Assembly: GCA_964035575.1 (NCBI GenBank)
Contig: OZ037846.1
Coordinates: forward strand, 1,302,001-1,366,000
DNA: 64,000 nucleotides
DNA from: Rhynchopus sp. YZ270_cl-10
Taxonomy: Eukaryota
Direction of reading: 5' to 3'
A program made the position numbers and the translations under genes. The notes below the pieces were generated by a model that was given only the letters and a program-made list of their open reading frames with translations, did not search any database and was not told the origin of the DNA. Of this stretch, positions 9,254-62,266 are shown one piece after another. Every line of letters begins with the position of its first letter. The first letter of the stretch is position 1.

Positions 9254-9961
9254 TTGGCAATTATTTAATTTTTCAAAAAAAAGAGGCCTTTTTCGAGTGA
9301 ACTTTTTGGAAAGTGGAGATTGCACAACTGGCAACACAAACCGAGGGCAACTACGCTACTCCAAAAATTTACCAAAAAATGAAAAAGGCTGTCAGCCCAG
9401 AGTCGATGTACTCTGCCACACCTTGGGGGGAGGTGTGCGGGCTGTACCCCTGCTTTTTTTTTTCCCCTCCATCATCTTTTACTACAAGGGCGGCCTCTGA
9501 GCCGTAACCTACAAACAACCTCCTTGCGACAGCAAAGAAGTACCGGGAGTGTTCCGCACTCACGAGAAACTTATCGTGGCGAAGGGGGGGTTTTTTTTTT
9601 CATAAAAGTTGCTCTTAAGGGTTCAGGACGACTGACGTCTGTACCTTCCGTAGTACAAAAGGCTTCGGCCAAACATTGAATACAAACCCTAGGTTCCCCA
9701 AGTGGGTCCTTAGGTGATTGTCGATACAAACAACAACAAAAAATATATCAGCCTTTCCCAGGGTGTGCTTTTTGAGCTCGGAAAGCAGCAGGAGAGGGTT
9801 TTCCTGGAAAAAATCTTGCTGCTCACAAATCTCGAAAAAAACCCCCCCTCGAAATTGCACCTATTCAGAATCAGGGCTGGAAAGGCTTCAAAAAAACCTC
9901 TTTATGCTTATGTACAGTGGAGCTCATTCTTGGGTGTCTACACTAATACAACTAAGTTATA

Positions 9962-16433: not shown

Positions 16434-17395
16434 ATGCAGCTACACTATATAACTGAATTGTTGGTACGTCGGTTGCGTACATTAATTTCACCTACCACCA
16501 CACAGGACACACGGCAGCATGCCATCAACCAGCGCATCGTTGATGTAGTGGCGCTCATTGACTACGTCTGCCGTATAAATGAGGACAGCACACCCAGCAA
16601 GACTGCCATCAGACCCACCTACGACCTCCTCACCACTCTTGCCGCGTCAACGCGCGCAGGGCCTGAGGTATGTAGCTATTCAGTTACAGCACTCCATAAA
16701 TTGGGCGTCTAAATAAGGCGGTTGGCGTTTTTTGGACCATATTTTGGAGTACTTTGCCCCTTTGAACATACAAAACACAGCTTCTGGTGACAATGCTTGC
16801 GTACATCACGCGTGTGACGGAGCAGGTGGACCTGCAGTACGCCAACGCGACCCACCTCGTGCTTGGGGCCTTCATCGTTGCCGCCAAGTTCTACGATGAC
16901 ACGATCGGGTTCTGTCCCAACTCGGTATGGCAAATGGATGATACAAAATGCTATCTTGTTGTGACTCTTTTTATTTGTGCTTGCATCCCCAGAGTTTGGG
17001 TGATCTATGAAACGGGGAGAGATTTTTTTTTTTTTCACTAGCTTCTCAGTAAGCTCTCACAGCCTGTTACGTGTCTCACGGAGACGGATCATAGATCATC
17101 CAAGAGCGGCTTTCATATCAGGTTTCCTTTTTACTGTAGGCGGCAGGGTACTTTGTGCTTTCATCCGGATGGCTGGCATCGTGGGTCAGTCGGAGGTGCC
17201 TGCACCAACACTTACAGTTTATTACAATAATAACATCACAAACAGGACTTCGCTGTCATTTCCTCGTCGAGTCTCTCTGACGTGAACAAGCTGGAACGCA
17301 CGATTCTCTCCCACCTGGACTGGAGCCTCCATGTAGATGCCGAAGAATACGAGGACTTAGTATCCATGATTGAGGAGCGTTCGTACCTGGCGTGA
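16434..17395 (+). CDS. Pho80/PREG (P/U-type) cyclin, spliced
   Basis: Exons 16434-16463, 16506-16667, 16781-16924 and 17246-17395 joined by GT-AG introns give ...IVAAKFYDD...NSDFAVIS...DVNKLERTILSHLDWSLHVDAEEY. The first 42-nt intron is in-frame and uncertain. Confidence 0.88.
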
Positions 17396-17952
17396 AAATA
17401 AAATAAAAAAATAAATGAAAAAAGAAAGAAAAATCCTTCAAAGAAAAATATTTTGTCGGCGTACATCCTTTGTGGGGGTTGTGCGCTGGGGGGGAAATAA
17501 AAAAGGAAAGGTAGTCATCATTTTTTTTTATATTTTGTTTTCGATATGTACGCATTGTCTGTGTACATTCAGATTTTTTTTTTTAGTTTTTGTTTTTTTT
17601 TGTTTGGGGGATTTCCTACAATGCCTACCTCGCTAATACCCACTTACTTTATAATACCCATGGTGTATCATCGTAAGTGGGTATTAGCAAGGTGGGCATT
17701 TCAGCAGCACCCTTTTTTTTTTATTATTTCTTCATCATGTTGACGGTTCTTTTCGTAAAGATGTGTATACCCGCCACGTTTTGCAAAATATGTCCAGAAA
17801 AAAAGCAAGGGTACATTTTTCGCACCCTCGTTGCCTTCTTTTCGTTTAAGAAAGTATATGATAACTCTTTCATGTAAAGATGTGTATACCCCTGCTTATT
17901 CGACTCTTTTCAACTTTTCTTATTTTTTTTTTTTTTTTTTTGTGAAAAAAAG

Positions 17953-18488: not shown

Positions 18489-19721
18489 AAAAAAAGAAAT
18501 GTTGTGCTTATCAATTTATTGAAGGCATGTGTTGAAATACTGTTTGTGTGGTATTGCAACGGCGCATCAAAGCATGTGTCGACAGAGAAAAAGAAGGGGG
18601 GGGGGGATAACAAAAAACAGATGAGTGACCAAGGAGGCCACTGTGCATCGTTCTTTGTGTTTTTTTTTTTTTTTCTTCCCCCAGTGCCTGCGTCCCACCG
18701 ATGTACGGTGAGGCGTTTAGCACAAAAAAAAAAAAAAATCAACTTATTTTTTCTCTTTTCTCTTTTGTATGTAGAGTATTCCCTATGAAAGAAAAATACC
18801 TTGTAACTGTTATCCCATAATAATAGTCTAAAAAGCAAGCATTATTTTTTTCTTTTTGTTGATTCCCCCCTAACAAATGACCCCAGTTACTTACCTAAGG
18901 TGGGTAATGAGGTGATTGTTGGGGGAAAAAGAATACAGGACAGCAGAAGGAAATCAACCCCGAAAAAAAGAGGCAAAACAACCCAGCACCTTTTTTGAAT
19001 GCAAAAAAAAAAAAAAGTAAAAATCTACATCCACATGACACTGTCATCGCAAATGATGGCATGGTGACACTCAGGGATCGCGTAGAAGTGTTTAGTATAG
19101 TGGAGTGCATCCTCGGGGTGACTACACTAATACAATCAAGAAAAAAATCTACTTTTTTTTTTAAAAAAAAAGGGGAATTGCGAAGTGTTCCCCTCCCACT
19201 CCAAGACAAGAACAATTAAACAGAGCACAAAGCACTTTCAAAACATACAAAAAGCATTTTCAAACTCCCCCTCCAAGACCTTACAGTGGCTGAGACAGAG
19301 GATAAGTCGCAATCTCATACAAAGTAACCCGCCCTTTCTCTCACCATCGAATTCGGTTTTCCTTCCCCCCCTCCCCCCCCCTACCCAGAGGTGATTTTCT
19401 CACACTTTGCTGGATGCTTCTTTGGCGCCCTTTTTGCCAAACAGTTCCCTCCCCCTCCCGCTTGTCCCCTTCCCAAGCAAGATGATGAAATATGAGGTGC
19501 TTAGATTCATTTTGCATTTTTTTGTTGTTCTCTTTCCTTTTCACCTATTAGCAAAAGCCAACTAAAAAAAAGGCTATTTTATTTGGGAAAAATGATTGTG
19601 TATGCCTGCTTACAGTTTTACCTGTAAGCAACACTCAGGGGGGGGGTTTGATGCCCCCCCCGTGGAGGGTCAGTGCCTGCGTCCCAGAGGCGTTTTGCAC
19701 TATCGCAAAGGGTGGAGCTTG

Positions 19722-19877
19722 CTGGCGACGCGGGATGAACCGAGAGCTGACTTAAGGTGCCCGAGTGGTCGCTCATCAGATCCCACAAAGGGTGTAGGTT
19801 CATCTAGACAGCAGGACGGTGGCCATGGAAGTCGGCATCCGATAATGAGTGTGTAACAACTCACCTGCCGAATGAAG
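19722..19877 (+). rRNA. Isolated 28S/LSU rRNA fragment (uL11-binding GTPase-associated centre region), pseudogenic
   Basis: CTGGCGACGCGGGATGAACCG...CATCAGATCCC...AGACAGCAGGACGGTGGCCATGGAAGTCGG...GAGTGTGTAACAACTCACCTGCCGAAT matches conserved eukaryotic LSU sequence; no flanking rDNA. Confidence 0.92.
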
Positions 19878-20167
19878 CTAACTTCACTTTAATAGTGGCC
19901 AATGCGTGTTATCGCTCTTTGAGGTTAATTTCCAGCATGCACAGAAAATAGTAAATTTTTTTTTTGAATCCTAAGCTAGACACACCGTATGTTGGTGTGT
20001 CACGTCTTCCAGTTTGTAAGAAGTTGAAAATGGGAAGTGCATTCATGTTTTACAAAAAAGAAAAAGGATTTTTCAACTTTATTTGTTTCTCTTTTGCTGG
20101 TTATCCCCTTTTGAAGCTTCTTCTGCATTGGCATTTTTTAGTTTGTTTTTTTTTTTGAAAATTGTAT

Positions 20168-21234: not shown

Positions 21235-22995
21235 AAGAAAACGGCAAAAAAAAAAAAAAGAGGAAAGCGACGTGCCGCGATGTTCACCAACCAAATTTTT
21301 TTCAAGAAAAAGAAAATAAAAACTTCATTGAAAATTTCGCACATTTCGAACAAAAAAAAAATTAAAACGAAAACGAAAACGAAACATTCCTTTTCCTCCC
21401 TCCAGCTCTGCATTGTCTGTTGCACGGGCCTTATTGAGCTAGAGAGAGGGGGAAAAAAAAACTTCATTTATCCTGTTTGTTACGTTTTGTCTTCTTTTTC
21501 TTCCCCTCTCGTTCCCCGGTTCAACTCTTTTTTTAAAAAAATGTGCCTTTTTTTTTTTTTTTTTTTGCATTTTTTTTAAAAAAAAGTGACAGGGGGCAGT
21601 CACTGCACACCACCGCCGCCTCTCACCCCTACTTTGCTCCTTTCCTTTTTCTTCCCCCTCCCGTCACAACACAGCCTAGCACTCACAACATCCAAAGAAC
21701 GAAAAACGGCTTCGGCCGATTGAGTACAGACCCTTTATACCAATAGGTCTAAAGGGTGATTGTCACTACAGCAAAAAAAAAAAAAAAAAAAACGGGAAGT
21801 ATGGTGTGGAGTTCATCCTCGGGTGTCTACACTAATAATCTTCAACAAAAAAAACAAAAAAATCGCACAAAAAAAAAAAAAAATGCTGTTGCGTGGCGAG
21901 AAAGCCACCCAAGATTGACTATCATGTTGCTGTAGTGCATCAAGGTTTTTTTTTTTTTTTAGAAGAGAAAAAAGTTTGTCCTGCACCAACAAGAGAAGGT
22001 CCTGTGGATATTGAGTACCCCGGGAGGTGAAGGAAGCGTTATTTATAAAGTCCAGAGCATCTTTGGTGGTGCCTGCACGATGAATAATAACGGTGAAAAT
22101 TAAGCAGGACTATGTTCGTCTCACCATTTTTTTTTTTTTTTAGTGACCGTGTGCATGCCAATGAAGTGCTCTCTGGGGTTCGATAAACCCAGTGTCTGCG
22201 TCCGCTGATGAATGGTGAGGCGTTTTGCACTTGCAGCTTCTCTCTCTCTCTCTCTTTTTTCTTTTTTTTCTACTGAAGTTTCAACTTGTGCACGAAGCAT
22301 TTTACTTTTCTTTTCTACGTTTTGCAAAACACACACCATAAAAAGAAAGATGGGACCATTTTTGTTGATCCCTCACCATATACTATCAATTTATTGATTG
22401 CATATGATGAAAATACTTTTTTTTGTTCTCTTTTCGATATTCGTACCCATCCCGCACTCCCCTCTTTCTTGAAAGAAGAAAAAATAGAAGAAAAAAAGAA
22501 GAAGAAAAAGCAGCAAAACAAAACAACATCACAAAGCAAAAAAAAAAAATCAAAAATCAAAAATTCTTCATAAAACCCCCAATTCAAGCCCCTTTTATTC
22601 AAGGTGACTAAGCATGAGAGGCTTAGGGGCATCTTATAAACTTTTTCCTTATTTGTAGCCTTTATTTTAAAGGTGTGCGTCCAACGTATTTTTAAATTCT
22701 GCTGTTCAGGAACGGGGCCCCATTTTTTTTTTTTGTTTTGTTATTTGCACCCCCCTGCAATTAATATCCCCCTTTTTGGCTGGGGAAAAGACAATCATCC
22801 CCAACAATATTGTGGAAACCAGCGCAGCTTTTGCTGTGCGATAACGAAATGTGATCAAAGGTGACTAAGCAAACGAGAGGCTTAGGTGAAGGGTCATCTT
22901 ATAAACTTTTCTTTATTTTCTTTTTTTTTCTTCAATATTCCACCCTTTTTCTCTCTCTCCCTCTCTTCCACTCCCTTTTTATTATTTGGATTTTT

Positions 22996-23253: not shown

Positions 23254-24231
23254 AATTTTCCTTTTCTTTTCTCTCAAGGGTAGATGTCCCGCCTATTGTG
23301 CTTGTTACATCTTTCCATCTTTGTGTTCAGGTCTTCATTTTCTGTCGTCTATCGTTCTAAAACGGGCTTCATCTCACAAAATATTGTACAAAAAAATAAG
23401 AGGGGTTTCTTCTCTGTTTTTTTTAAAATACCATATTCAGAAGCCTAACTAAACCCAACAAGATTTTATCAAAAAACAAATTCTTCTTTTGAGCAGAAGA
23501 TGAAGGGCGTGCTCATGAGAAAAGAAAACAGTACTCTCTTTTTTTCTTCTTTTTTTCCATTGACCACCTGATTTTTACCCCGCGTAAAGGCGCGTAAAGG
23601 CTGGGAAAAATGGGTGGGGTTTGGCCTATACTGGCCTGTACGGGCCTATACGCGGGGTAAAAATCAGGTGGATTGAGTGAGGCTAAGGTTCATTATATTT
23701 TTTTTTTAAACGAAAAGAGTGAGGGGGAATTTTTTTCTTTTTGTGTGTCCAGTTTCCCGCGTGAGAACTGTATCAAATGCAAAAAAATAATAACGCGCCA
23801 TCAAGCAGAGGTTTGCTTCGGTACCGCCCTTTTTGTAGATGTGTGTGCACGAGAGGAGGGGCACATTCATCTTCTGCTTTTTTTTTTTTTTGCTCCGCGA
23901 TAACGAATGTGATCAAAAGGTGGACTATGCAAACGAGAGGCTGAGGATCATCTTATAAACTTTTTTTTCTTTTTCTTTTCTCCCCTCGGCCAATGCGCCA
24001 TTTTTATCTAAGATTTTATGGATGCGGCCTTCCGCGGTCCGTCCATCTTTTCACAGTATTTTTTTCTTCTATTATTTTTCTCATTTCCTTATTTTCACAA
24101 ACTCCCCTTTATCGTGCTCTCTCAAATGTGTGTTTTGTGTTTGCCTTTTTTTGTAAGGCCCCTCACTTTTTATCTTCAACGGTGTGTTCTGTTTCTTTCC
24201 CCCGTCTCTTTTCTCTTTTCTCTTTTCTTTA

Positions 24232-24377: not shown

Positions 24378-25160
24378 GATATGCCACAAAAAGGTCTTTA
24401 GGCTACTTAAGGTCATCTAAAGTAACTTCTTCTTTGGCTCATGGTTGGGGTGTCCACCCCCGGTACAGCCGGTCATGCACCAAGGTACACGAGAGGGCTT
24501 TGTATTTCAAGTCAGCTCTTCTGTCTTTCTTCTTGGTGTGTGTTCACATGAGAGCAATTCATGTTTACCAATGTTTGGTGTGGCTGAATGGGTAAGTACG
24601 CAAAAGAAGTGCGTACCTTTGATACACCCCTTTAGCCACCCCCAAAGTTTTTTTTTTTAACCCAATGCCGTCACTCTTCCCTCCACATTCCCCACAGCAG
24701 CAAACTAACGAAAAAAAAATTCTTTTTTTTTTGGTGGCCAAGCATGACTCAGCACAGAGAGGCTAGGTTCATCTTATAAACTCTTTTATTCCCCCCCTCC
24801 CCTCAGCTTTACCCACCCCTCTCTAGATGCAGTGTGTGCCCTACCGTGCGGCACATGCTTCATCTCTCCAATTTTGGTTACTCTTTTACATGCAGGTTAC
24901 CCAAGTGAATACCGTTTTCTTACAAATTGTCGACCGTACTAATGTTCGACCTTGTCAGAATTTTTCTGGAAGTTCGACCTGTTTTTACGGTCGATAATTT
25001 GTACGAATACGGTACATCTCATCTGATGGTTTTCCTTTTCCTTTTATTACAGGTGATTGTCGACACAAAAAACCCCCCTTTTCTTAGTACTGAGATCGTG
25101 GATGAGTCGTAATCCCAAACAACGTAACGCACCCTTTCTCTTAGACATGATGTCTACAAA

Positions 25161-26038
25161 CAGTGTTTCCGCGACCCAAAAATCGGACGAAGTTCGTCCG
25201 GTAGGAAAAAAAAAAAAAAAACTGCCGGACGAAGTTCGTCCGGACGAAGTTCATCCGGGGAGTGGGAAAAATGGGTGGGGAGAGGGCCCGGGGTGGACGA
25301 GTGGGGTGCGGCCCCGCAGGGGACGCACCCCACCCCGTATAGAAAAATAAAGGCCTCCCCTCTTTGGCGTCGCGCAGATCTGCGGCCGCACTTATGGTAT
25401 CCCCCTCTATCATTCCCCTCAAACCCTTTGCGGGTTTGCGCACGGAGTACAGCATTGAACAGCTAGGCAGATTGTACGACCAGTTCTTCACCCCCCACAA
25501 ACTGTCCTACATGCATCACGATGTCGTGGGTGGGGATGCGCTGAAGCCGGTGTACAGCGACACCGCTGAACGGAAGCAGTTCCAGACAGCCAGTATTGTG
25601 CAGGGGGTTGAATTCAGTGACCTGTTGGCAGAGTGGCAAGAGCTCAAGTCGGTGTTGAGGGTGTGCACCTCAATGACAACTCTTCATGACGTTCTGATGT
25701 ATGTTGAGCTCAATGAGGAAGGTGACACCGAGTACCCTCAGATGAGGACGTTACTCCGTCTCTTGTTCACTCTTCCTGTGGGTACAAGCACAGCTGAGCG
25801 CTTATTCCACCACCCGCCACGCTTTGTTTTCGAGTATCTCGTAACGTGAGTTTCTCACCTGTTGTGTCTCACGAGAGACCGTGAGGCGAGACAACTCCGC
25901 CGGAGGCCCCCGACCCGGCGCGCGAAGCGCGCCGGGCTCGACCTGTATTGTGTTAAGCACTAGTAAAAAAAAATTTTTGGGGGGAAAAAATAACTCGTCC
26001 GCCCCCTTCGAAAACACCGGAAGAACGCGGAAACCCTG
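25161..26038 (+). mobile_element. Deleted hAT transposon retaining the C-terminal dimerisation domain
   Basis: TIR CAG(T/G)GTTTCCGCG; TSD TCTACAAA; ORF 25364-25849 with EYPQMRTLLRLLFTLPVGTSTAERLF. An empty-site paralogue of the target lies at ~28075-28120. Confidence 0.92.
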
Positions 26039-26350: not shown

Positions 26351-29300
26351 TTTCTTCCTTTTTATTTTTATCAATTTTTTTTTCTTTCGAACAACGACAA
26401 AAAGAAAGAAACACACTCATCATTTGTGCTACTCAGCGCAGAAGATGAACTCGAACTAATGAAAACCAAAACCAAAAAAAAGGGGCAAAACGGCTGTAGT
26501 AATGTGGTGTGTGTCGTGTATTTTCTTCTTTTTCCACAACCTTCCTTCACCCCCTGTAAGGGTAGTCGAAGGTGAACGGTGGTGCCTTTCGAGGCAGATT
26601 CGTCTTTTCAAGTTTTTCTTTTCTTTTGGGCATCGTGGGTGAGACAACAGGAAACTTCTAGTACAGACCTTGAACCCAACCCGGTACCAGGCGATCTCAA
26701 AAAAAAAACAAACAAACAAAAAACACAGTGGATATTGCACAACTGTGGCAACACAACCGAGGCAACTACACTACTCCAAACAATTTATCAAAAAAAATAC
26801 GAATAGTGGAGCACACTCTGAGATGGCTACACTAATACAGCCAAGTTTTCAAAAATAAACAAAAAAACATAGTCTTCACACCCATTTTTTGATATCAGGT
26901 GTGAGTTTGGGTATCAGAAACACTTTTTTTTTTTTGTTTTCCTGCTTTTTCTTCTTCATTTTCCTCCCCAAATCACCTCCCATCTCAGCAATGCAGCTAT
27001 TTTGTGGCCTTTTTTTTTTTTTTTTTTGCCTCAAGCTGTGAAAGCCTGTCTTAACTATCCCGCACCACACACCCACTCCCTTTCACCACTCACAAAGAAC
27101 CCCCATATTTTGTGGAACGACTTTTTTTTTTTCTTTGAGAACGAAATGTGATCAAGGTGCCTACGCAACGGAGAGAGGCTTAGGATCATCTTATCAAACT
27201 TTTCTTTTCTTTGCAGGTGTGTTACTGGTTTTCCCTGCTTTTTAAAATACCCGGAGGACAAAAACTCTTTAGCTTGGCACTGAGATTTTTTTTACTCCCT
27301 GTATTTGCGCTTTTATTTTTTTAAACGGTGGCTAAGCAACCACGCTTACGCTTTCGTCTTACCTTTTTTTTTTTCTCCCACTCCCCCCCCCCTGAAAACC
27401 CTGGGCAGAATGGGATGTGTTTGTACCCACTCATCTTGCTCAGCGCGTTTCTTTTCTTTTATTTTCTTGTTTACGTTTTTTTGGGATTATTTTTATTCCT
27501 TCGTTTTTTTTTTTTTGCGACGTTGTGCTTCCGTCAAGGAACAAAGCCTTCCCTCAACAACCCGTGGATGAAGGCTAACCCACCATTTCTAATAACTTTC
27601 CATTTCAATAATAATATCAACAACCACAGCACGTCTGTACATAAAACAACGACCTTTCCCCAAATCTAAAATGTGAATGCATATTAACCTCTGCGACTTA
27701 AAATTTTTTTTTAAACTTACTGGTGGTGTCATCCTGGGTTTCTGAGTGGGAAAAATTGGAAATTTTCCAAAATTTTCCACAAAGTGGGGGTGTGTCTATT
27801 ATAAGGGGTATCTTGTACGTAGCGATTAGTTTTATTGATTACAGAGTCTGTAGATAAAGCTAAAAGTTAAACCCTTTCTTATCTTCGACCACCAGTAAGT
27901 CACTTAAGTCGTGCAGCTATGAGTAGGGATCCATGAGGTAAACATGAATACCCACACCACTCACATACCCCAATAGCGTTGCTGAATGGGTGCACAAAGT
28001 ACGCAAAAAAAGTGCGAATCAGCTCCCCCCCTTGAACCCCCCTTCAGCACACCCAAAACTCCCCCCCTTTTTTGTAACGCACCCTTTCTCGACTTGATTG
28101 TCTACAAATCTTAGAAAAAAAAAACAAAACTCAATACCCACAAAAACAAAAACAACAAGAGCAACCCTGCAGAATTAAAATTTTAAAAAAAATTGAGTAC
28201 AGATCCTGCACTAGCAGGTGATTGTCGACACAAAAAAAAAAAAAACAACTCCACTAATAAGCCAAGAACGCGCCCACACTCACACACATTAGGACAAATG
28301 TTTTGCTAGGGAACTACCCGGCCCCACATTTTACTTTTTTTAAACACACACAGCACACACAACACAGCTCCTTTTTTCAGCCCCCCTCCTCCTCCTCCCC
28401 CCTCAATGAATGCTGGTTACTTCCTCTTCTTCTCTTTCGCTCGAACGGCATCGTTTTTTTGTTGACACAACACAACAGTGAATACGGAATAGAGGTTGTG
28501 ACCAGCATTTTTTTTTTTTTACAGTTTCCCTTTTTTTAGCAACTCCTAAGTGAAGCCCCTCCGGGGGTTCGATAACCCCGGATTCCCCGGGTGGAGTGTG
28601 TCAGTGCCTGCGTCTCAGAGGCGGTTGCACCTATCAACCTTCACTTTTTATTTTTTGGTTTTTTTCCAGTTGGAACACAACATCCATCACAATGAAAACA
28701 ACACACTCAAGGGCATATTTCTCCTTGAAAATCTCGACAGGAGGGAGGAGGGGAGAGAGGAAAAAAATTAGTGGAGCTCATCCTCGGGTGTGTCTCACTA
28801 ATGCATCTATCTTTAAAAAAAAATCGATGAAATTGGTGGTATCATACGGTATAGCTGGCTTGAGGTGAAGCCCCAACCAGGTTCAGTGGGCATGACCCCG
28901 GGAATGCCTGTAGAGTTATCCTAACATTTTTGCTATGTTTTTTTTTATTTTGTGTGATTTTTGTGCTACACATTGCGTGACAACTGTATGTGATGATGCA
29001 ATACGGTGTGTTTGCTTTGAAACAAACGATAAATATTTTTTTACAAAAAAATAACACAGTGGGGCTGCTGCACTACACCAAAAAAAAAAAAATACACTCT
29101 CACAACTGGGTACCATTCCCGCTCCCAAGATTCCCCCCCCTACCAAATGGTCGTGCGAAGAGAAAAAAATATTGTGGCTTGCTGTCCTGTGATAGTTTGT
29201 CTATAATCAAATAATCCTCACCCCTAAGCACCACTCTCACATTTATCAGGGCTTTGGCACGAAAAAGGAGGTCTTTTTTTTTTCGTATTTTCTTTCTCTT

Positions 29301-32454: not shown

Positions 32455-34263
32455 CACGGGTCGGGAAAGATCTTTTTTTTTTTTTTTTTTTCGAGAAAAA
32501 AAAATCCTCTTCTCCCGAAAAATAACTATTTATTCACCTCCTTTTAGCGGGGTTTTATTTTGCGATAACTTCACGCATTTTTTTCCCAGGCGAGGGCTAC
32601 TTAATTTGCCGAGCGAAGCGAGGCAAATTGAGTGCACGAGCCTGGGAAAAAAATAAGTGAAGTATCGCAAAATAATCCGCTAAAAGGAGGTGAATACGTA
32701 ATTTTATTTCACGGGAAATAAAGTATACGAAAGGATTTGGCACTTTTAGCGTGACTTATTTATTGTGCAATAACTAACGAGTATGTGTCCTCACAGGAAG
32801 CTCTCAGCAGGGCGTTCGCCCCGGGGCGAAAAATATTTTTTTTCGTTAAAAAAATCTTTTCCTGAAAAAATGACATTTTATTTCGCCCCAGGGCTTCGCC
32901 CCACCGGGGCGAAACCCTGTATAAATAAATAAATAAAAAAAAAAAAAGGGGAAAAAAAAAAAAAAAAAAGAGAGAGAGATTTCTCCCCACCACCCTGTAG
33001 ACCCCCCCGGAGGGGGGGTCGCAGAGGGGTGTCCACTGTACTCAAAATCATCCGCAAACCCGCCTGCCGTGAGAGGAAGTTTCCCCAGCACTCCCGCTCC
33101 TCAATCCTGCAGTCTGCTGAAGGTGCCCCGTACCCCCTGTTATAGAAGGTGTCACTGCTCGTGTCAACTCTATCTTCAACGGCAGAGAGACGTTTTAGTT
33201 TATTGAAAATAATCAAACTAAGGATGAAGTCTCATATGACAGATGCCTCTCTCTTGTGCATCTGTTTGATTAAACAGCACAAAGAGACCCTCAGTGAGGG
33301 GGGGATTGATGAAATTCTCCATCGTTTTGCTGGTTTTAGTATCAGGAAAGTTCAGCTGTAATAGCACTTGTGCTGGGGAAGGGATCACGCGCAAATCGCA
33401 ATTTTTTTTGACCACTCAGTACCAGGGATTCACCCCCCACGAACTAGCTTCTCTCCGGCGGGAAAATTTTTTTTTGACCTATTTTAAGCACTAGTAAAAA
33501 AGCAAAAATTTCGGATTTTTTGGCATTTCGCCACGATCAGGAAAAAACGATGGCGATAGCGAACGCCCTGGCTCTCAGGGAAAAAAAAAAAAAAGAGCGT
33601 GAAAAAAAAAAAAAAAAAGCTCTCGTTACCCTCCCGCCAGCGCTACCGGGTCCCGCGGACCCCTAGATAGGCCCGCTGAGGGGCTGGCGGGATTGAGGAG
33701 GCTGGAGGGAGGCTAAAAAAGGCTGGACGGTCCCTCCAGCCCTACTACCTACATGTACCAAAATTTGGCGTGAAATTATCATTAAATAAAATCCCGCTAA
33801 AAGTGCCAAATCCTTCGTATACTTTATTTCCCAGTGGAATAAAAAAAAAAAAAAAAGATTTTTGAGAGAAAAAAAAAAAGAGAAAAGATTTGAAAATCCT
33901 GGAAAAATCCTGAAAAATCCTGGAAAAATCCATGAAATTTCATGAAAAATCTCGAGATCTTGAGAAATCTTTGAAAAAAAAAAAAAAGATTTTCAAAATC
34001 TTTTTTTTTTTTTTCCCAAAAAGATTTTTCAAAATCCCAAAAATCTTTTTTATCTTTTTTTTGAGAAAAAAAAGATTTTCAAGATCTTTTTCATCTTTTT
34101 TTCTCTTTTTTTCCTTTTTTTCCTTTTTTTTTCAGGATTTTTCAAAGATCTCAAAGATCTCGAGAGATCCTGAAAAAAAAAGACAAAAATCCTGAAAATC
34201 TTGATTTTTTTTTTTTCTCTCGAAAAAAGACAAAAAAAGACAAAAGATCTTTCCTGACCCGTG
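32455..34263. mobile_element. CACG-terminus (CMC/CACTA-like) non-autonomous element
   Basis: CACGGGTCGGGAAAGATCTTTT / AAAAGATCTTTCCTGACCCGTG in T-runs (2-bp TT TSD plausible); AGATCT/AAGATTT subterminal repeats. Confidence 0.82.
32808..33570 (+). mobile_element. Deleted hAT transposon with dimerisation-domain remnant, nested
   Basis: TIR CAGGGCGTTCGC; TSD GCTCTCAG; 33149-33361 encodes SSTAERRFSLLKIIKLRMKSHM...IDEILHRFA. Confidence 0.92.
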
Positions 34264-35592: not shown

Positions 35593-35872
35593 CTCCCCTC
35601 CCCCCTTTTTTTTTTGTTTTGCTTCAGCAATGCAAAAAAAAAAATAAAATCCCTTACTCATTCACCCCGCCCCTCTCCACCCCCTCCCTCACACCTCGTC
35701 TTCCACTTCTTTGTGGCGGGCCTGTATATCTCTATAAATTTAACAAAATAAAAATGCCGTTCAGGTACACGACCTACCCTCACGGGTGGTTGTAGGTTCG
35801 GCAAAAAAAAAATCAAAAAAAAAAAAAAAAAAACCTTGATGCGAACTACCCCTTTGAAGGTTCTTTTCATCC

Positions 35873-36003
35873 TAAAAGTTGCTCTTAAGGGTTCAGGACG
35901 AACGACGTCTATACCTTCCGTAGTACAAAAGGCTTCGGCCAAACATTGAGTACAGACCCGAATTCTCCCACCTGGTGGGTTTACTCGGCGATTGTCGACA
36001 CAA
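35873..36003 (+). repeat. Structured repeat family F6 (UUCG tetraloop plus variable stem)
   Basis: GGCTTCGGCC...ATTGAGTACAGAYCC[variable hairpin]GGYGATTGTCGACAC. Copies at 9603, 21707, 28192, 41183; 3' stubs at 25051, 54086, 61802; all on +. Confidence 0.85.
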
Positions 36004-36116
36004 CAAAAAAAATCGGTCTTTTGCGGAGTGTCATATCCAGAACCGAAAAAAAAGACGTACTGGGAGTCGGTTCACATCTTCAAGCGCGTATGTAAAAGTG
36101 TACATAAGACCTTCCA

Positions 36117-39100
36117 CACGGCGGGGTCCGCACACCCCGAGGGTCCGTAAAACGGCATGTTAGGACACTCCCTCTTTACGGAGTGTCATTACGTACCCTA
36201 GGGTACGTAATTACGGACCCTAGGGTCCGTAATTACGTACCCTAGGGTCCGTAATTACGTACCCTAGGGTCCGTAATTACGGAGCCTCCCAGGAAAAGGG
36301 ACTCTCGAAAATTTTTTTTTGCCCCCGTTTAGGGCTAATTTCGACGATTTGAGGCCATTAAAAGCAAAATTTGGCACTTTTGAGCATCTGTGGGGGTCTA
36401 AAACACAGTTTAGAGTACCACAATTTTTAGTGGGTTTTACCGAAAACAAGTCAATTTTTGGGCCGAAAAAAAATTTTTTTTGACATCACAAAATTGCCCT
36501 TGGTGGGCCTATGTGTCCTCAATGCTGGGCGAAAAATGCAAATATAGCTATTTTTAACTTTCACACACACGGGTTTTACCTGTGTACCTGTGTATCTGTG
36601 TACCTGTGTACAGGATATTTGTTGTGAAAGACATCTTCCACCATGCATTGAGGAGGGTAAGACAGTGGTCGCAGTTTGTACTTGATAGCATTACAACATT
36701 TAACTTCTCCACGGGGGTCTTGGGCCGTTCACTCGGTTATACCTTGACTACCGGAAGATATTCTTGAGGCCTTTTTGGTCTCTAGAATATCCGGTATTCC
36801 CGAACGGAGGCGCACTTTGTGTGTTACTACGACCTGGCAATTTCCAGCAGTAGGTTAAGTAATCTTTCTTGTAAATTGTTGGATCATTATCTCCTCAGTG
36901 CATGAATGCCCCACGTGACTGGACACTTTCGTGTTTGTCATGTGGAGCTGTGGTTGCTTTTTTCACGACTTTTTTCCTTGTACACCAGTGTACCGTGTAC
37001 CGGGGTACCTGGGCCGAAAATACACCAGTACCCAGGTGCCTGGGTGCCCAGACACACCACTGTACCCAGAATCCAGTCTCCCACCCAGAAAACCTACTCA
37101 TACACCAGAAAAGTGAAAATAGCTACTCGATCAGAAAAGTCGGCTACGACCAGAAAAGTAGCTGGGAAAAGTTCAGAAAAAGCCAGAAAATTTCAACAAA
37201 ACGCATTTTTAGGTTCTCGAAGACACTGGGTACTGGGTACTGGGTACTGGGTACTGGGTACTGGGTACTGGGTACTGGGTACTGGGTACTGGGTACTGGG
37301 TACTGGGTACTGGGTACTGGGTACTGGGTACTGGGTACTGGGTACTGGGTACTGGGTACTGGGTACTGGGTACTGGGTACTGGGTACTGGGTACTGGGTA
37401 CTGGGTACTGGGTACTGGGTACTGGGTACTGGGTACTGGGTACTGGGTACTGGGTACTGGGTACTGGGTACTGGGTACTGGGTACTGGGTACTGGGTACT
37501 GGGTACTGGGTACTGGGTACTGGGTACTGGGTACTGGGTACTGGGTACTGGGTACTGGGTACTGGGTACTGGGTACTGGGTACTGGGTACTGGGTACTGG
37601 GTACTGGGTACTGGGTACTGGGTACTGGGTACTGGGTACTGGGTACTGGGTACTGGGTACTGGGTACTGGGTACTGGGTACTGGGTACTGGGTACTGGGT
37701 ACTGGGTACTGGGTACTGGGTACTGGGTACTGGGTACTGGGTACTGGGTACTGGGTACTGGGTACTGGGTACTGGGTACTGGGTACTGGGTACTGGGTAC
37801 TGGGTACTGGGTACTGGGTACTGGGTACTGGGTACTGGGTACTGGGTACTGGGTACTGGGTACTGGGTACTGGGTACTGGGTACTGGGTACTGGGTACTG
37901 GGTACTGGGTACTGGGTACTGGGTACTGGGTACTGGGTACTGGGTACTGGGTACTGGGTACTGGGCACCCAGAGAAAGCACCTTAAAAGCAGCGAAGGCG
38001 CAGGTTACGGGGAAGACAAGGTATGTAATTATGTTTAACTTTCAGTTACTAGTGAAGATTGGACAAAAAAATGCCGCATATTTCAACTTGTTCGTGTTTT
38101 CAACTCGAAATAAACGCGTAATGTTCACACTATTAAATAGCTATTTTTTTACGCACCAATCATTTTGTGTCACCTCATGACATGAAGGAGGAAATAGAAA
38201 CAAAGCATTTTGAACACACTTGCGGTTCTGGGGACGAACCGCGCTGCAGAGCCACTCCTCAGGTCGAGGTGTGTGCGTTTCACCACAACCTCTCCCATGG
38301 GTTTTATCGTGTGATGAGTGTTACGTTTCTATTTGGTTCCACAGGCGCTCGTTACCTGCTTCACATAATTCACCTCGCTTCACTCGAACCATTTGTGCAG
38401 CAGGTCACTCTCTCGACCTGTAGCGTGGAAAAAATCTATCTTATTTCACGGCAATAAATAGCCTTTTTTATTAACCTCACCTTTCCCGACTACTACGTTT
38501 GTATACCATAACTTAATCACACCCCACATTTACACTTATCACAGGATCGTGAAGTCTGAACTGCACCCGCGATTGCGATGAGAAGCTTCACCGCGGTCCG
38601 ACATTCAACAACTCAAAATCTACCCGCATCAATCTATTCTCGAAGATCTGGGTGGAGGGGGGTGGGTACACTTAGTCAGTCACTGCTATAGCCATTAACC
38701 AAGGGAGCATAGCTAGTGCAAGAAATTCGACTTTGGAAACCTTCCGGAAAGTCTGTCCTCTGCTTCCGGAGGACTAGACACAAGAAAATATTGCGTTCCC
38801 CCAGAAAACCAGTGCACAATTCACACTCCTTGTGGGTGGTCTTGTTGCCTTTTTGGTCAACAGTAATTTTGGCCCAGGCATGCTCTTGAAGCATGACAAT
38901 TTAGTGTGTATGGGGCAGGGTGTTGTTTTGTTCTGAATTCTCTTTGTTATAACATCTAAGTCAATCGCGGGTGGTGGTTTGTGTAGCGTGAGGCACTCTT
39001 TTTAACAAACTTCCTGCGGCTGCTAAAGCGTTATTTCTTCGGATTTAACAACGTACAGCGTAACATAGTGGATTAGCCTGGTCGACACAACCTTTGATAG

Positions 39101-40768: not shown

Positions 40769-41418
40769 ATTGTGTGATGAGTGTTAAGTTTCTATTTCTT
40801 TCTCCGTGCAGCGTTACAACAAATGATACAACGTGGCAGAACGTACATCATTTTGTAAAAAAAAATGTCGTACGTATTTAGGAAAAACCCCGGGACCAGA
40901 ACCCGGGCTAGTTCACACCTAGACAAAAGAAGATATCCACATTGCCCAGGCAGAACAAAAGAACGTGAACTAGTAAAACTCAAGTATAAAAAAAGCTACA
41001 TTCCAGAGTTGAGGACGATTTACGTCTATATCTTTTACAGTAGGACAAGAACCTTGGCGACCAAATAATATTGGCGGATTTTGGGGGTTTTCTTGCAATT
41101 GGCGACTTTTTTTGGTCGCCAATATTACTTGTCCTACTGTAAGTACAATAGCCTTCCCTCGGGCGACATTGACCACCTGCTCGTACAGATCCTGCAGTAG
41201 CAGGTGATTGTCGACACAACATAAAAAACCCCCTCTGGGTAAACTCTACATCCCTACCCATCCTATTTCTCAAGGTGGTACGCTAAGCTCGTGAGAAGTT
41301 CCAAGCTTATGCGAGACTTACGTTCGTCTTATCCTCAAATCGCAAAAACCCGAGGGGGGAAAAAAAACGTTTCTTTAAGGATGATGGACAACTTCATCAT
41401 CCGCTTATTTCAAGCATA

Positions 41419-44999: not shown

Positions 45000-47627
45000 C
45001 ACGGGTTGCCTACGATCGTAGTACGATCGTTTACGATCGTACCAAAAAACGATCGTAACGATCGTAAAATATCGTACTACGATCAACTACGATCGTACTA
45101 TGATCGTAAACGATCGTAGTACGATCGTAGTACGATCGTAGTACGTTTGCCAAACGAAATAACGAATATCGCTTGAAATACCGTCCGATATTCCTTGCAT
45201 GGTGTGCATGAAGCACACACAAGGTATATCAAACGATAATCAATCAGATAAAACGTTACATCATTGGAAAATTGTTGGCACCGCCGCCCTGTCTTCGTAT
45301 TTATTACGTCGACAGGCCAAACAACGTTGGGCTCAGAAGAAGCAGTGCTAGACAGTCACTGGGGATCAACATGAGAACCAACTCCCAACAACACAGGCTA
45401 CCGAAGTAGCAGGTGGGGTGTTGCGGGTGTTTGGGGTGAAAGAAAATCGATTTTGGTAAGTTGCAGCAGAAAATTCTTAAGTTTGCAATCGCGAGAAGGG
45501 TTACACTGCTCTTGCGAGCTGTGAACCGGTAAGGTTGAGAAGGGTGACACGGCATACAAGTACAAGTACAAGTAAGACGTACCTTCTGCAAAGGCTGAAT
45601 TCGCAATTCTAAGGGATATGAATTCAGCCCCCACATGTTTTTTTGAGATTATCATTCCATGGTATACTACGCGTTCCCGAAGAATGAATCACCCCCTCCT
45701 CGTTCATGCAAACTCAAGAAAATTCTGAAGTAACTACAACCTGGCGTGCGGGTACAGATGCATTGCTTTGTTCTTTCCTCAAAGTCATGTGTGATCTCTC
45801 GGGTCTGTACTAAAGTCAGTGTTTAGATAAGCATCCACTTGACTCGTTCTAACAACCGTTGAAATCTAGAACAAAACAATACACTGCCCCTTCTCACACC
45901 AAGCCGCCATGCTTCAAGAGCATGCCCTGGGCAAAAATTACTGTGACAAAAATTAGTTTTCTGGGGGAACGCAATATTTTCTGTCTATTTTCTCCGTGTC
46001 TCGTCCTCCGCAAGCAGAGGACAGACTTTCCGGATCCCGAAGTCGAATTTCTTGCACTAGCTATGCTCCCTGGGTTAAATGGCTATAGCAGTGACTGACT
46101 AAGAGTTTCATAATAATTAGGGTGGTCTATGGGGTGGGTTAATGGAAAAGTTGGTATATAAACCCGACTTTTACGATCGCCACCTGGTTTTGAAATAATT
46201 GCACCAGCTCTTCCGTCGGCACTGCTTCGCTGTCACGATGAAGGGTCGTCGGTTCGGGTACCTGTTAAGAGAAATTGAATGTAAAAGTAGAGACTACAAC
46301 AAAAAAACAAACAAACAAACAAACAAGAAGCCGCCCCGTACCCCTTAAACGTAAAAGTGACATTTTTGTGGACAAAAAAAAAATTATTACGCGTCCACTC
46401 GACGTTTGGATAAAGAAAACTAGAGATGAAAGGGGGTTTGGGGGGAAGAGTTTAATTCTTGAACGCATCCCCACACTCAGTCACACTTTTTTTTTTTGAA
46501 AAACACCAAACGCTGTTCACAATAATGAACGAAAAATTGACAATTTTCCTGAAGATGTAATGTATGTGCGAGAGATGGGGAGCACGGGAGGGAAAAAACG
46601 ACTCGTGGATACTGAAAAATTTCACTAGAAATGCACGCATGTCTTATATAAAAAAAAATAGCTAAAAAATAGCGGACATGTCGAAAAGGGAGAAAACCGG
46701 GGGGTTAAAAACATACCTTGCACTCGGCCCACTCTCCAGGTACAAAGAACATCACTGCACGACAAACCCACTACTACAATAGAAAATAACTATTTTTTAC
46801 CGAACAGAAAGGTCGTTTTATCGATGAGTGTTTTCTGAGTGCACACTCAGTGGGGACAAAATGCAACACTTCAAGGCATGCAATACTCCAAGGAATTTGC
46901 TAAGGAAAAGTCGATATTGTGGGCCCCTGTAGTAGTGCATATAGTTTACCCCCAGATCGTCAAAACACCCGATTTTTGCGTTTTTTTGCACTTTTTGGTG
47001 CCCAAAAACCCAACTCAGGGGTCAAAATTTTCCCGAAATAAAAATTTTTTTTTTGAGATTTTTTGATTTTTTGACAAGGCGCTGGCCCATACAAAATGCA
47101 CTGGTGGTACAGAAAATGACTGGGGAATTAACTCTAGATGCTCAAAACAGCCCAATTCTTGCTTTTTTTGACTTTTTGGTCCCAGAAGGGTACCTAGGGT
47201 GTAGTGAGCAGGCCTCAAAAACACTTGTGAAAAAAAAAATTGGGGTTTTTTTTTTTTGAGATTTTTTCAAAAATCGACTTGTTTTTGGTAAAAATCACGA
47301 AATTTTGGGTTCGCGGAACCGCGTTTTAGACCCCCCTAGATGCTCAAAAGTGCCAAATTTTGCTTTTAATGGCCTCAAATCGTCGAAATTAGCCCAATAT
47401 AGGGGCAAAAAAAAAATTCGAGGGTCTAGGTATGGAGAGCGAGCACCTTAGAAGGAAGATCGTACGATCGTACTACGATCGTTACGATCGTAGTACGATC
47501 GTACGATCATAATACGATCGTAAGTACGATCGTACTACGATCGTACTTTGATCGTAGTACGATCGTAGTACGATCAAAAAAGAGCTACGATCGTAAGAGA
47601 TCGTACTACGATCGTAGGCAACCCGTG
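45000..47627. mobile_element. CACG-terminus (CMC/CACTA-like) non-autonomous element
   Basis: TIR CACGGGTTGCCTACGATCGTAGTACGATC; TT flanks; dense TACGATCGTA palindromic subterminal repeats. Confidence 0.9.
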
Positions 47628-49420: not shown

Positions 49421-50685
49421 TACCCCATAACAATATCAGGTGGTTAATATCGACTTCTTACCCCATAGCAACATCAGGAGGTTAATAAACCAAGCGGATC
49501 GACTTCTTACACCATAGCAACATAAGGTGGTAAATAAACCAAACGGATCGACTTCTTACACCATAGCAACATCAGGAGGTTAATAAACCAAGCGGATCGA
49601 CTTCTTACACCATAGTAACATAAGGTGGTTAATAAACCAAGCGGATCGACTTCTTACACCATAGTATCATAAGGTGGTTAATAAACCAAGCGGATCGACT
49701 TCTTACACCATAGCAACATCGGGTGGTTAATAAACCAAGCGGATCGACTTCTTACACCATAGCAACATCGGGTGGTTAATAAACCAAGCGGATCGACTTC
49801 TTACACCATAGCAACATCGGGTGGTTAATAAACCAAACGGATCGACTTCTTACACCATAGCAACATCGGGTGGTTAATAAACCAAGCGGATCGACTTCTT
49901 ACACCATAGCAACATCGGGTGGTTAATAAACCAAGCGGATCGACTTCTTACACCATAGTATCATAAGGTGGTTAATAAACCAAGCGGATCGACTTCTTAC
50001 ACCATAGTAACATCGGGTGGTTAATAAACCAAGCGGATCGACTTCTTACACCATAGCAACATCGGGTGGTTAATAAACCAAGCGGATCGACTTCTTACAC
50101 CATAGCAACATCGGGTGGTTAATAAACCAAGCGGATCGACTTCTTACACCATAGTATCATAAGGTGGTTAATAAACCAAGCGGACCGACTTCTTACACCA
50201 TAGCAACATCGGGTGGTTAATAAACCAAGCGGATCGACTTCTTACACCATAGCAACATCGGGTGGATAATAAACCAAGCGGATCGACTTCTTACACCATA
50301 GTATCATAAGGTGGTTAATAAACCAAGCGGACCGACTTCTTACACCATAGCAACATCGGGTGGTTAATAAACCAAGCGGATCGACTTCTTACACCATAGC
50401 AACATCGGGTGGTTAATAAACCAAGCGGATCGACTTCTTACACCATAGTATCATAAGGTGGTTAATAAACCAAACGGATCGACTTCTTACACCATAGTAT
50501 CATAAGGTGGTTAATAAACCAAGCGGACCGACTTCTTACACCATAGCAACATCGGGTGGTTAATAAACCAAGCGGATCGACTTCTTACACCATAGCAACA
50601 TCGGGTGGATAATAAACCAAGCGGATCGACTTCTTAACCCCATAGTAACATCAGGTGGTTAATAAACCATGCGGATCGACTTCTT
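49421..50685 (+). repeat. 49-bp minisatellite, ~25 units
   Basis: Unit CCATAGCAACATCGGGTGGTTAATAAACCAAGCGGATCGACTTCTTACA with a few recurring variants. Confidence 0.97.
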
Positions 50686-51297
50686 TCATCACGCACATGG
50701 ATGGAACGTGCAGGACGTATGCTGGGGTGCGACGTTCTCTGCAACCGTCTTTGCTTTCGCGACGCTGAGTGCGAACACGACCTGCGTCTGCTACCGTGCA
50801 AGGTGGAGGTTGCTCGAGACTGTTTCGAAGGAAAAAGAATCCTCAACTGCAACAGACGAATGGATGTACCAGATAGGTGGGAAGAAGCATTGGGAGGACT
50901 ACAACACAGTGGTGCGTGGGTACCTGCGCGGTGAGTGCTGTGACACGGACGTTGCTAAGGCGTGGGCGGAGGCGGGTGGGAGAGGCACACCAGCACGCGA
51001 AGTTCCTTCCGGAAACGTGCAGTGGTGTGTGTTCCTGTGTGCATCATTGCCATGCGTCTATGTGTGTCGATGTGATGGACCGTAACTTATCTGGACAGTA
51101 TTATAAGTTTACGCAAAAACTGTACTTTATGATTCTTTCGAGTTAAAACTCTTTTGTAGTCCAGATATGATATTTTCGATGTATTTGTTTGATCTGCAAG
51201 GTACGTCGCTATTTTTGGTTTCCTTGACACAATAAGTTGGACTAGTCGAAAGTGTTGAGTGCAATGGTGCGGGGTTCTAATTTTGTGTCAGAATGCC

Positions 51298-51872
51298 CGG
51301 TGGATAATAAACTAAACGGATCGACTTCTTACCCCATAGTAACATCAGGAGGTTAATAAACCAATCGGATCGACTTCTTTCCCCATAGTAACAACAGGAG
51401 GTTAATGAACCAAACGGATCGACTTCTTACACCATAGTAACATCAGGAGGTTAATAAACCAAACGGATCGACTTCTTACCCCATAGCAACATCAGGAGGT
51501 TAATAAACCAAGCGGATCGACTTCTTACCCCATAGTAACAACAGGAGGTTAATAAACCAAACGGATCGACTTCTTACACCATAGTATCATAAGGTGGTTA
51601 ATAAACCAAGCGGATCGACTTCTTACCCCATAGCCACATCAGGAGGTTAATAAACCAAGCGGATCGACTTCTTACACCATAGTAACATCAGGAGGTTAAT
51701 AAACCAAACGGATCGACTTCTTACCCCATAGTAACATCAGGAGGTTAATAAACCAAACGGATCGACTTCTTACCCCATAGCAACATCAGGAGGTTAATAA
51801 ACCAAGCGGATCGACTTCTTACACCATAGTAACATCAGGTGGTTAATGAACCATGTGGATCGGCTTCTTATT

Positions 51873-52701: not shown

Positions 52702-54035
52702 ATGCTCAACACAACACGCCCTGAGATGTGGTGGCGCGAGCTGCCTGCAGAGCTTTCCTTCACCCGCCCCGCCGAGATGGCACGGTGGGCCATGGAGACC
52801 GCAAGCGACCCACGCACCAAAGAATGGCCTACTATGGCGTCACCAAGCTTCAACTGGAGCTGCTCGCTGCTGTACGTCCTCTTTATCTATTTGGCACCGA
52901 AGGTGATGGAGAAACGCGCTGCGTGGGATCTTCGTTCCGCAATGGTTGTGTACAACGTTGGAGTCATTCTACTGAACCTTTACATGTTCCTCGAGATTCT
53001 GCACCAAACCGTTATGTTGGATATGAGCTGGGTCGGCAACGCGGTTGATTACTCTGAGAAAGGTACCGGGCTTGCCGCGGTGTTGTACTTATACTATATG
53101 TCGAAGCTTGTGGACTATGCCGACACCTTCTTCCTTGTCATGCGCAAGAACGCCCACCAGCTCTCCTTCCTGCACGTCTACCACCACACCTTCATGTTCT
53201 GGGTGTGGTGGCTCGGGATCCGCTTCGCGGCCGGGGGCGACTCCTGGTTCTGCGCCTGGGTGAACTGCTTTGTTCACGTCGTGATGTATTCCTACTACCT
53301 TTCTTCCTGTCTGGGGATCCGTCTGCAGGGAAAGCGCTATGTGACTCAGGTATGTTGGGTAAGAGGGAGGTTTTTTTAAGGCTTTGGCGTCATTTTAAAG
53401 AAAGCTTTAAAAAAGCTGAAAAGCGATGAAAACCATGCCGACCTAATTCATTGGTGGTGAGTCAGGGCAGGGGGGTTTCCACGTTGGTTGAGGAGCAACC
53501 CACATATGGGGGTAGACGGGGGTGAAACGTTTTTGTTTTGAATTAAACTCTTTCCCCCCAAACCCCTTTTTTGTCTTTGTTTTCTTTATCCAAACGGCAA
53601 GTGGATGCGTAATAATTTTGTCTTAGCCTTGCTGTTCCCTCGATAAACCATAAATTGTTGGTTGTTGGATCGCACGAAAAAAAAAAAGGCGAGGTGAAGT
53701 CGATCAATTTATCAATTTGTCAAAAAAAAAAAAAATAACACACTTTTTTACAGCTCCAACTCCTGCAATTCGTGCTTGTGATTGGACACTCGGCATACTC
53801 GCTTCACATTGACGCACACTACCCACACTGGATTCTGTGGGCGCTGATCGGCTTCCTCTCTTCGCTGTTCATGCTCTTCAGCAACTTCTACATCCAGGCA
53901 TACTTTAAGGGGGGGAAGAAGTCCACCAAGACTGCGTCCGACTCTGTTAAGGTGGCAAAGGTGACTAAGGTGGACAACCCTGTCCGTGAGCCCTCCGTAG
54001 ATGCGAAAGACTCAGGGCTCCGGAAGAGAATATAA
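52702..54035 (+). CDS. ELO/GNS1-SUR4 family fatty-acid elongase, two exons
   Basis: Exons 52702-53349 and 53754-54035 (GTATGT...TTACAG intron). Motifs KLVDYADT, FLHVYHH, NCFVHVVMYSYY, TQLQLLQF, LFSNFY; basic C-terminus RKRI. Start codon inferred. Confidence 0.95.
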
Positions 54036-60900: not shown

Positions 60901-62266
60901 AAAATCAGAATTATATCATGCAAACGATTGACGAAGAAGAACAGATTAAGAAGACAGTCTAAACAGAGATAGAGAACGAAATTCCCGTCTGAGACTCTCG
61001 TTCTATTCGAAAACAAAAGAAAAAAATATGGCCGTCGAAAAATTTCCGAAAAATGGACGGATTTCCCTTTGGTTTTGTAGCGATTTTGCTTACACATAAC
61101 TCGAAAAACACCATCCAAAATGAGACGAGAGTGGGGTGTTTTTTTCTTTTCTTTTTTTTTTTTTTTCTAAATATTTTATGATTTCTTCAATATTTCTCAG
61201 GTAACTTTCTTTTTAAATTTTTTTTAAAACTTTTTTTTAGGGTGCAGTGTTGAGAGGCGCATTCACCATTCAATGGTGCTTTCGGAAGTCGGTCAACGAC
61301 CTGTCAGCGACGTGTCACGACCTGTCGGTGACCTGTCGGCGACCTGTCAATATCAGGGGGTGTGTGTATAGAGTCCCTGTGTCAGCGACCTGTCAATATC
61401 GACCCCTCCCGGAGCACCATTCAAGATTATTTTTTATGTTTGGGAAAGGGGGAAAAGATATAGTACGCAGTGCAGGGAGGTTATCATTCACAATTCAAAA
61501 CGTGGAGTCGCCCTCCCTAGAATTTACGCTAGTCAGCTAAATGTGGGGGGGTGGGGCTGCGTCAAAAACAGAATTTACCCGTTTCTGCCTGCCGTTGATC
61601 TTTGTTACCCCCTCTCCATACACACGCCCAGATCCTTCACCCATCTCCACGAGCATTTTGCCGCAAACCCCGGAAAGACAAAAACAAAACAAAAACAAAA
61701 AAAAAAAACAAAAAAAAAATCTAGAATTTTAAATAGGATATGCTCCTAAGTCAAGCATTCCCCATTCTCCCACGACACCCTTCCCCCCGATTAAAAAAAA
61801 AAGGTGATTGTCGAAACGACAAAAAAATACCGTTTCTAAGCAGGCATTTCTCCAAAAAAAAAGGGGGATGGGCATTGCCTACAGGGCTTTTTTCTATTTC
61901 AAATTAAAAAAAAACCTGCCCAAACCCTATCTCACCCGGGCCTAGCTACCCGGGTATCCAATGATCTCCCGTTCGTTACCTGAGGAGTGGAGGTGGGAGT
62001 AGGACGTAGTAGCGGTATCCACGAAACTAGAGATAGGCGACGAACGGCTGCGTGGAGCTCACACGAAAAAAAGCGAGGTGTCATCGATTAATTATTTATT
62101 TTGAAAACTTGGTTGTATTAGTGTAGACACGCTTATTTTGTTTTTACACCTTCGTTGTTCGCTGTCGGGTGTATTTTTTATTTTTGCTTTTTCATCGGAA
62201 TATCAATCATCAACCAAAACACACCACCAAAAAAGGGGGCGAAAAAAAACAAAACAAAGGTAATAA

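Follow-up and report, generated by a model that had tools for sequence, protein, structure and literature searches.

Conserved flanks around a variable stem with compensated changes have been described for stringent LINE/SINE 3' ends (PMC3747384). In Leishmania, SIDERs show a sense bias of about 4-fold (PMC2689281). Diplonemid genes are arranged in unidirectional, likely polycistronic clusters, LINE-type ORFs and RNAi genes are present, and diplonemid repeats are largely unclassified, many of them without an obvious origin (PMC10161547). We found no description of the repeat presented here, which we call family A, in the literature on diplonemid SINEs, repeats, snoRNAs and ribozymes, and seven supplementary text files for D. 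papillatum held no match for three motifs, "snoRNA" or "ribozyme".

The locus at 35873 was originally predicted to be a conserved core with an exchangeable stem and a UUCG tetraloop, reminiscent of a ribozyme or riboswitch. Across the window (the whole 64-kb stretch of DNA analyzed), this constant "core" is the 3' end shared by the copies of an abundant, A-tailed repeat that varies on its 5' side. The feature is the 3' stem-loop of an A-tailed, high-copy dispersed repeat of ~130 nt, which we consider likely to be a non-autonomous SINE-like retroposon. It is real, structured and mobile-element-like; it is likely to have been copied through RNA and unlikely to be a ribozyme.

Copies of the repeat and their ends

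Profile and pattern searches identified nine dispersed family A loci in the window, all on the plus strand, which is the gene-coding strand (Table 1). The nine comprise three long copies, three shortened ones and three 15-nt stubs of the 3' arm. They share a common 3' end and an A-rich tail, and start at different points on the 5' side; in eight of the nine, the 12 nt that follow the 3' end contain at least nine A, against a background of 2.3%. If both of two weak minus-strand candidates (36475-36523, E 0.011; 45787-45814, E 0.49) were real, the strand count would become 9 to 2. The palindromic MITE-like insert that splits the third long copy appears to duplicate TA, and palindromic MITE-like inserts are also found at 24910-25014, 32517-32710, 23564-23671 and 60044-60152.

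Table 1. Family A copies in the window and the parts of the copy at 35873
Feature	Position	Strand	Evidence or remark
Long copy of the family A repeat	35873..36003	+	nhmmer; contig depth plateau, loose ends before 35873
5' hairpin, loop 35901-35905	35888..35917	+	pair probabilities 0.57-1.0
GGC-UUCG-GCC hairpin, 3 bp	35931..35940	+	contig alignment without a substitution row inside
Conserved 5' arm of the 3' stem-loop	35945..35957	+	ATTGAGTACAGAYCC pattern match
Variable covarying stem, insert specific to the subfamily	35958..35988	+	shuffle test, covariation; contig loose ends behind 35959 carry alternative inserts
Conserved 3' arm, the 3' end that the copies share	35989..36001	+	GGYGATTGTCGACAC pattern match
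A-rich tail	36002..36012	+	10 A per 12 nt, background 1.2%; depth ~100-fold lower beyond 36015
Second long copy, other insert subfamily	9603..9729	+	nhmmer
Third long copy, diverged	40991..41219	+	two interruptions: palindromic MITE-like insert (about 41037-41139), small local inversion
5'-shortened copy, begins at the UUCG hairpin, AAAAACGG flanking both sides	21703..21771	+	nhmmer
5'-shortened copy, minimal stem, A runs on either side	28190..28233	+	nhmmer
Diverged short copy, 3' arm partly deleted	26653..26699	+	E 5e-8, but a seed of the model; absent from the original prediction
3'-arm stub and A run	25052..25068	+	pattern, nhmmer
3'-arm stub and tail, about 50 nt past the elongase stop codon	54086..54103	+	pattern match
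3'-arm stub, A runs on either side	61803..61817	+	pattern match

The high copy number is apparent from contigs of two sequencing runs, 1036 from run X1 and 608 from run X4, that align to the 275 bases of 35836-36110; the contigs listed extend into unrelated flanks. Over 35906-35995 the summed depth is 4.9-8.0e5 in run X1, against 877 on the 3' flank, and 1.3-2.3e5 in run X4, against 138, or about 600-1700 times the flank. Summed depth is no copy number, and these values suggest hundreds to low thousands of copies. Because the two runs may include the window's own source, they inform on copy structure and not on independent occurrence. Runs X6 and X11 are of low depth (listed contigs about 2-8x) and the RNA status of X11 is a guess; neither was used for expression or for other species.

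In the contig alignment, depth breaks off sharply at the 3' edge and ramps up at the 5' edge, where loose ends precede 35873, 35927 and 35942, points that the 5' starts of the copies in the window match; the ramp is modest and in part an edge effect of short contigs. Several alternative inserts begin behind 35959, and the commonest substitutions of the 5' half fall at 35902-35904, in the loop of the 5' hairpin. Three distinct head-to-tail joints lead from a tail into a further partial copy. Directly upstream of the 35873 copy lie two more hairpins, at 35836-35872 and about 35755-35803, with an A run between them; the raised contig depth at 35836-35872 shows that this segment is also repeated. 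Pattern matches at three metagenome loci had neither stem nor tail, were by estimate about as numerous as expected by chance, and were rejected. Pattern scans gave no match in viral contigs or in prokaryote genomes, and the sequencing runs listed as containing this DNA included no RNA run.

Arms, variable stem and searches for known RNA families

The arms had been described as nearly constant, and their recurrence is indeed far above chance. With up to two mismatches, the 5' arm ATTGAGTACAGAYCC has five matches in the window (four on the plus and one on the minus strand) versus 0.15 expected, and the 3' arm GGYGATTGTCGACAC has eight, all on the plus strand, versus 0.13 expected; the match at 20796 lacks family context. 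Constancy does not extend to every copy, as the copy at 41183 retains only GTACAGATCC and the 3' arm of the copy at 21719 misses the pattern at two mismatches. The upstream tetraloop hairpin GGCTTCGGCC is present at 9661, 21708 and 35931, as had been noted, and in the copy at 41150 the UUCG loop is replaced and the stem altered.

The five inserts listed originally were found in place (that of 9689 begins at 9688). The idea that the insert always base-pairs was borne out for five of six inserts, which beat shuffled sequences at p<0.05 with the CC/GG ends forced shut, and not for the three stubs, which have no insert at all. The insert at 21731 gave p=0.055, and Fisher's method p about 1e-6 across the five distinct inserts. 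In the alignment of six copies, 94.2% of 52 cells are paired versus 82.0±3.2% after shuffling, and none of 500 shuffles reaches the score, in a control that ignores the relatedness of the copies and covers six sequences only. RNAalifold places a 5-bp stem on the same alignment, with three of its five pairs changed on both sides, whereas double-sided change is seen in none of the four pairs of an arm-arm helix, that is, no covariation. G-U pairs are tolerated in the variable stem. The covariation and the shuffle tests on the inserts support a structured RNA stem under selection. "Exchangeable" describes this stem only in that it differs among copies: as the inserts share an inner CCC..GGG(T) stem and differ by indels, they look related by descent, with a stem that diverges and is not exchanged. 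Left unconstrained, 35873-36006 folds in another register, in which the originally proposed stem is not formed, and in folding energy the two intact long copies have no advantage over shuffled sequences (z = 0.13 and -0.67).

This last result counts against the reading as a ribozyme or riboswitch, as do the searches for known families. There is no ribozyme among the Rfam families matched at E<=10 over 35800-36100, and none of the 42 Rfam matches at E<=5 in the whole window overlaps a copy or is a ribozyme. A scan of the window at gathering thresholds reported only an LSU rRNA fragment, looser scans gave only weak unrelated matches, and a tRNA scan of the window found none. Descriptors for HDV, hammerhead and pistol ribozymes, run without a positive control, matched none of six copies on either strand; the HDV descriptor, which stands for the HDV-like/Pr77 nested double pseudoknot (P1-P1.1-P2-P3-P4, catalytic C in J4/2), had no match in the rest of the window either. 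The CUGANGA hammerhead core is absent from both strands of the six copies ±60 nt. Two sets of candidates were discarded: a loose twister pattern matched only the MITE-interrupted copy and had no Rfam support, and by-eye likenesses to a group I intron core, SECIS/K-turn, U6, the spliced leader and a tRNA-Lys head were based on motifs of no more than 5-9 nt.

Host setting, strand orientation and sister repeats

The three genes identified through Pfam (LRR, NADAR and ELO) are all on the plus strand, which fits the unidirectional, likely polycistronic clusters of D. papillatum (PMC10161547). The elongase gene (52702-54035, +) consists of two ELO-matching exons on either side of an apparent GT-AG intron; exon identity is 80%, 73%, 70% and 68% to proteins from clusters named Rhynchopus euleeides, R. 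humris, Diplonema ambulator and D. japonicum, respectively, and the best non-diplonemid matches reach about 45%. The host, eukaryotic by its LSU rRNA fragment, is therefore likely a diplonemid, a marine protist. By eye, a cyclin-like gene lies in pieces at about 16650-17400 (+), two fragments without a Pfam match, with a family-F hairpin inside its apparent intron.

Sense orientation is not confined to family A. For eight hairpin families chosen by eye (A and seven others, B-H), the plus strand accounts for 50 of the 51 nhmmer hits at E<0.01, including 42 of the 43 that belong to the seven further families (e.g., at 9914, 4504, 19669, 7457, 6562 and 24228). Other dispersed repeat pairs are in the same orientation in 28 cases versus opposite in 24, and A runs (96) are not more numerous than T runs (127) on the plus strand. 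The 3' flanks of families D, F and several E copies are T-rich and not A-rich, so that these may differ in mechanism. Families B and C have common AGTGGAG..CTACACT arms around different stems, and are often chained after A tails. In the shuffle test, inserts of families B/C, E and G were significant in only 5 of 25 matches, of which two are off-family and several have inserts too short to fold alone; a shared design is therefore suggested by eye more than by test.

One sister repeat has a hammerhead-like core. It is found at 9074-9252 (+) and 61909-62082 (+), with CTGAGGA at 9142 and 61980, a 5-bp stem II, GAAA, stem I downstream, and a family-B hairpin downstream of the core. These are the only two strong cores in the window, related to each other, and compare with 0.08 expected. 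The 61980 copy has a 9-bp stem I, and in a third copy at about 57420-57515 (+) stem II is changed yet paired and the core is broken. Stem III and the cleavage triplet are non-canonical, the 9142 copy is not called by Rfam, and minimum-energy folding gives a structure other than the hammerhead. The sister repeat may contain a type I hammerhead, decayed or variant, like those associated with Penelope-like elements (PMC4209133). It is a better ribozyme candidate in the window than family A.

The window contains several other repetitive features. A family-E hairpin is immediately followed by an isolated LSU rRNA fragment (19715-19916, +); in D. papillatum, scattered 28S pieces reportedly number about 3600. 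Perfect arrays lie at 1642-2376, 37225-37965 and 55040-55435, two with a 7-mer as the unit (105 and 106 copies) and one with an 8-mer (49.5 copies); the 7-mer arrays are part of a larger element that is duplicated and whose inverted ends are at 1549-1655 and 3936-4034. Tandem arrays of 49 bp (49449-50685 and 51305-51870) flank a short ORF (50669-51085) without a Pfam match and are adjoined by a near-identical duplication of 213 bp (48132/51876). An ORF remnant at 25343-25849 (+), also without a Pfam match, resembles by eye the C-terminus of a hAT transposase.

Mechanism, alternatives and comparison with known systems

In family A, the confinement of covariation to the stem matches the pattern of stringent LINE/SINE 3' ends (PMC3747384), and the 3' stem-loop is likely retained for recognition by a reverse transcriptase. 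This enzyme would be of the LINE type and encoded elsewhere in the genome, and would bind the stem-loop such that arm sequence and a paired stem matter and stem sequence does not. Since no Pol III promoter was found, we infer that source copies would be transcribed by read-through within polycistronic Pol II units. Priming by the reverse transcriptase would take place at A-rich sites, and its frequent early stops would leave 5'-truncated copies and stubs. Antisense insertions might be disfavored or purged, for instance via added U tracts or double-stranded RNA in pre-mRNA. No reverse transcriptase family was matched in the 132 window frames scanned out of 139 listed (four of the other seven overlap genes scanned before). 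An 8-nt A-rich duplicate flanks three of the nine copies, contains non-A letters in only one, and is absent at the two intact long copies, so that target-site duplications are weak. A SINE in the strict sense also has an internal Pol III promoter or a head derived from tRNA, 5S or 7SL RNA. Family A is short, non-coding and present in many dispersed copies that are 3'-anchored, 5'-variable and A-tailed, all as in SINEs. In the 35873 copy we find one B-box-like 9-mer with a mismatch at 35891 and no A box. As it lacks the Pol III-type head, we file family A as SINE-like and not as a SINE.

Two alternatives assign the structure a function for the host, and we regard both as improbable. The long form could be a box H/ACA-type RNA with two hairpins (in order, hairpin, H box, small insertion hairpin, hairpin and ACA), or a derivative of one, that later spread by retroposition; its variable stem would be the upper stem above a guide pocket. 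A length of about 130 nt would suit, as would the processing of euglenozoan snoRNA genes from polycistronic transcripts (PMC2613932). In both intact long copies the upper stem of hairpin 1 is followed at a distance of exactly 14 nt by an H box (ANANNA, here ACAAAA), with ACAATA at the corresponding place in the third. Seven of the nine copies have their first ACA 9 or 11 nt past the variable stem, which is outside the 13-16 nt rule (PMC2613932); later ACAs at 14-16 nt fall inside the A/C tail, where an ACA comes cheap. The "pocket" of hairpin 1 is self-paired, no copy has an Rfam snoRNA match, and the guides of trypanosomes and Euglena are described as single hairpins, in trypanosomes with an AGA box, which is absent from all nine copies. 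Equally improbable to us is a cis-regulatory hairpin selected by the host, such as a protein-binding, processing or stability signal in UTRs or intergenic RNA, like exapted SIDERs. The near-exclusive sense orientation and the stub just past the elongase stop codon would fit, regulation in diplonemids is inferred to be mainly post-transcriptional (PMC10161547), and Leishmania provides a precedent (PMC2689281). Against this, copies are truncated, interrupted or reduced to stubs without the stem, and most lie kilobases away from any gene found.

We give less credit still to the remaining two. A new class of self-cleaving ribozyme would free the element RNA from its co-transcript as do the HDV-like ribozymes of L1Tc/ingi. 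The covarying peripheral stem and the hammerhead-like core of the sister family point this way, and a promoter-less element in a polycistronic genome needs release, as described for trypanosomatid retroposons (PMC4035085). However, the searches found no known ribozyme fold, the core does not covary, long copies fold like shuffles, and the conserved part is 3'-terminal, unlike release ribozymes, which are located 5'. Very doubtful, too, is a DNA-level element, Helitron-like or MITE-like, with a subterminal hairpin read as single-stranded DNA. The position of the hairpin, the weak target-site duplications and the 5'-variable copies are compatible with it, and Helitron-like ORFs occur in D. papillatum (PMC10161547). 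The A-rich tails, the G-U pairs in the stem and the lack of terminal inverted repeats speak against it, as does an orientation that tracks transcription, given that the inverted-repeat elements in the window face both ways.

As a plain SINE-like retroposon, family A is a modest addition. More speculatively, and with considerable doubt on our part, it could be one of several promoter-less retroposon families in diplonemid polycistronic units, all with fixed arms around a stem of free sequence, that form a dense layer locked to one strand (in the window about one element per 1.3 kb). In this view the hammerhead-like core of one sister could free that sister from the co-transcript, family A may have an H/ACA-type RNA as its ancestor, and the families together could serve as a post-transcriptional code across the genome, parallel to the SIDERs of Leishmania. 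If the strand lock held genome-wide, one could test how elements without promoters come to be expressed and filtered in genomes that lack transcription control at the gene level, and whether diplonemids, as Leishmania, recruit retroposons as RNA regulatory signals.

Among known systems, retrozymes and the hammerheads of Penelope-like elements resemble family A as small non-autonomous retroelements with a structured RNA (PMC4209133; bioRxiv 10.64898/2026.07.22.740005). In contrast to retrozymes, family A is A-tailed and dispersed and has no CUGANGA core on either strand. The SIDER, RIME and NARTc elements of the ingi clade share with it a polycistronic euglenozoan host, non-autonomy, intergenic dispersal and sense bias, and the clade is poly(A)-tailed, as family A is A-tailed (PMC2689281, PMC4035085, PMC12278014). 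Family A is far shorter, lacks an HDV-like 5' fold, and is conserved at its 3' end, whereas the hallmark of ingi-clade elements is a 5' stretch of 77 nt. Likeness to box H/ACA RNAs and to snoRNA-derived retroposons (snoRTE) lies in the two hairpins, the placement of ANANNA, the terminal ACA and the overall length; ACA spacing, the closed hairpin 1 and the missing AGA box set family A apart. From SINEs with stringent, LINE-derived 3' stem-loops, family A differs in having no tRNA, 5S or 7SL head and no A-box/B-box pair, in its weak target-site duplications and in its strong strand lock. It resembles them in being short, non-coding and dispersed, with an A-rich tail and 5'-truncated members, and in ending on a 3' hairpin with conserved flanks and compensatory changes in the stem (PMC3747384).
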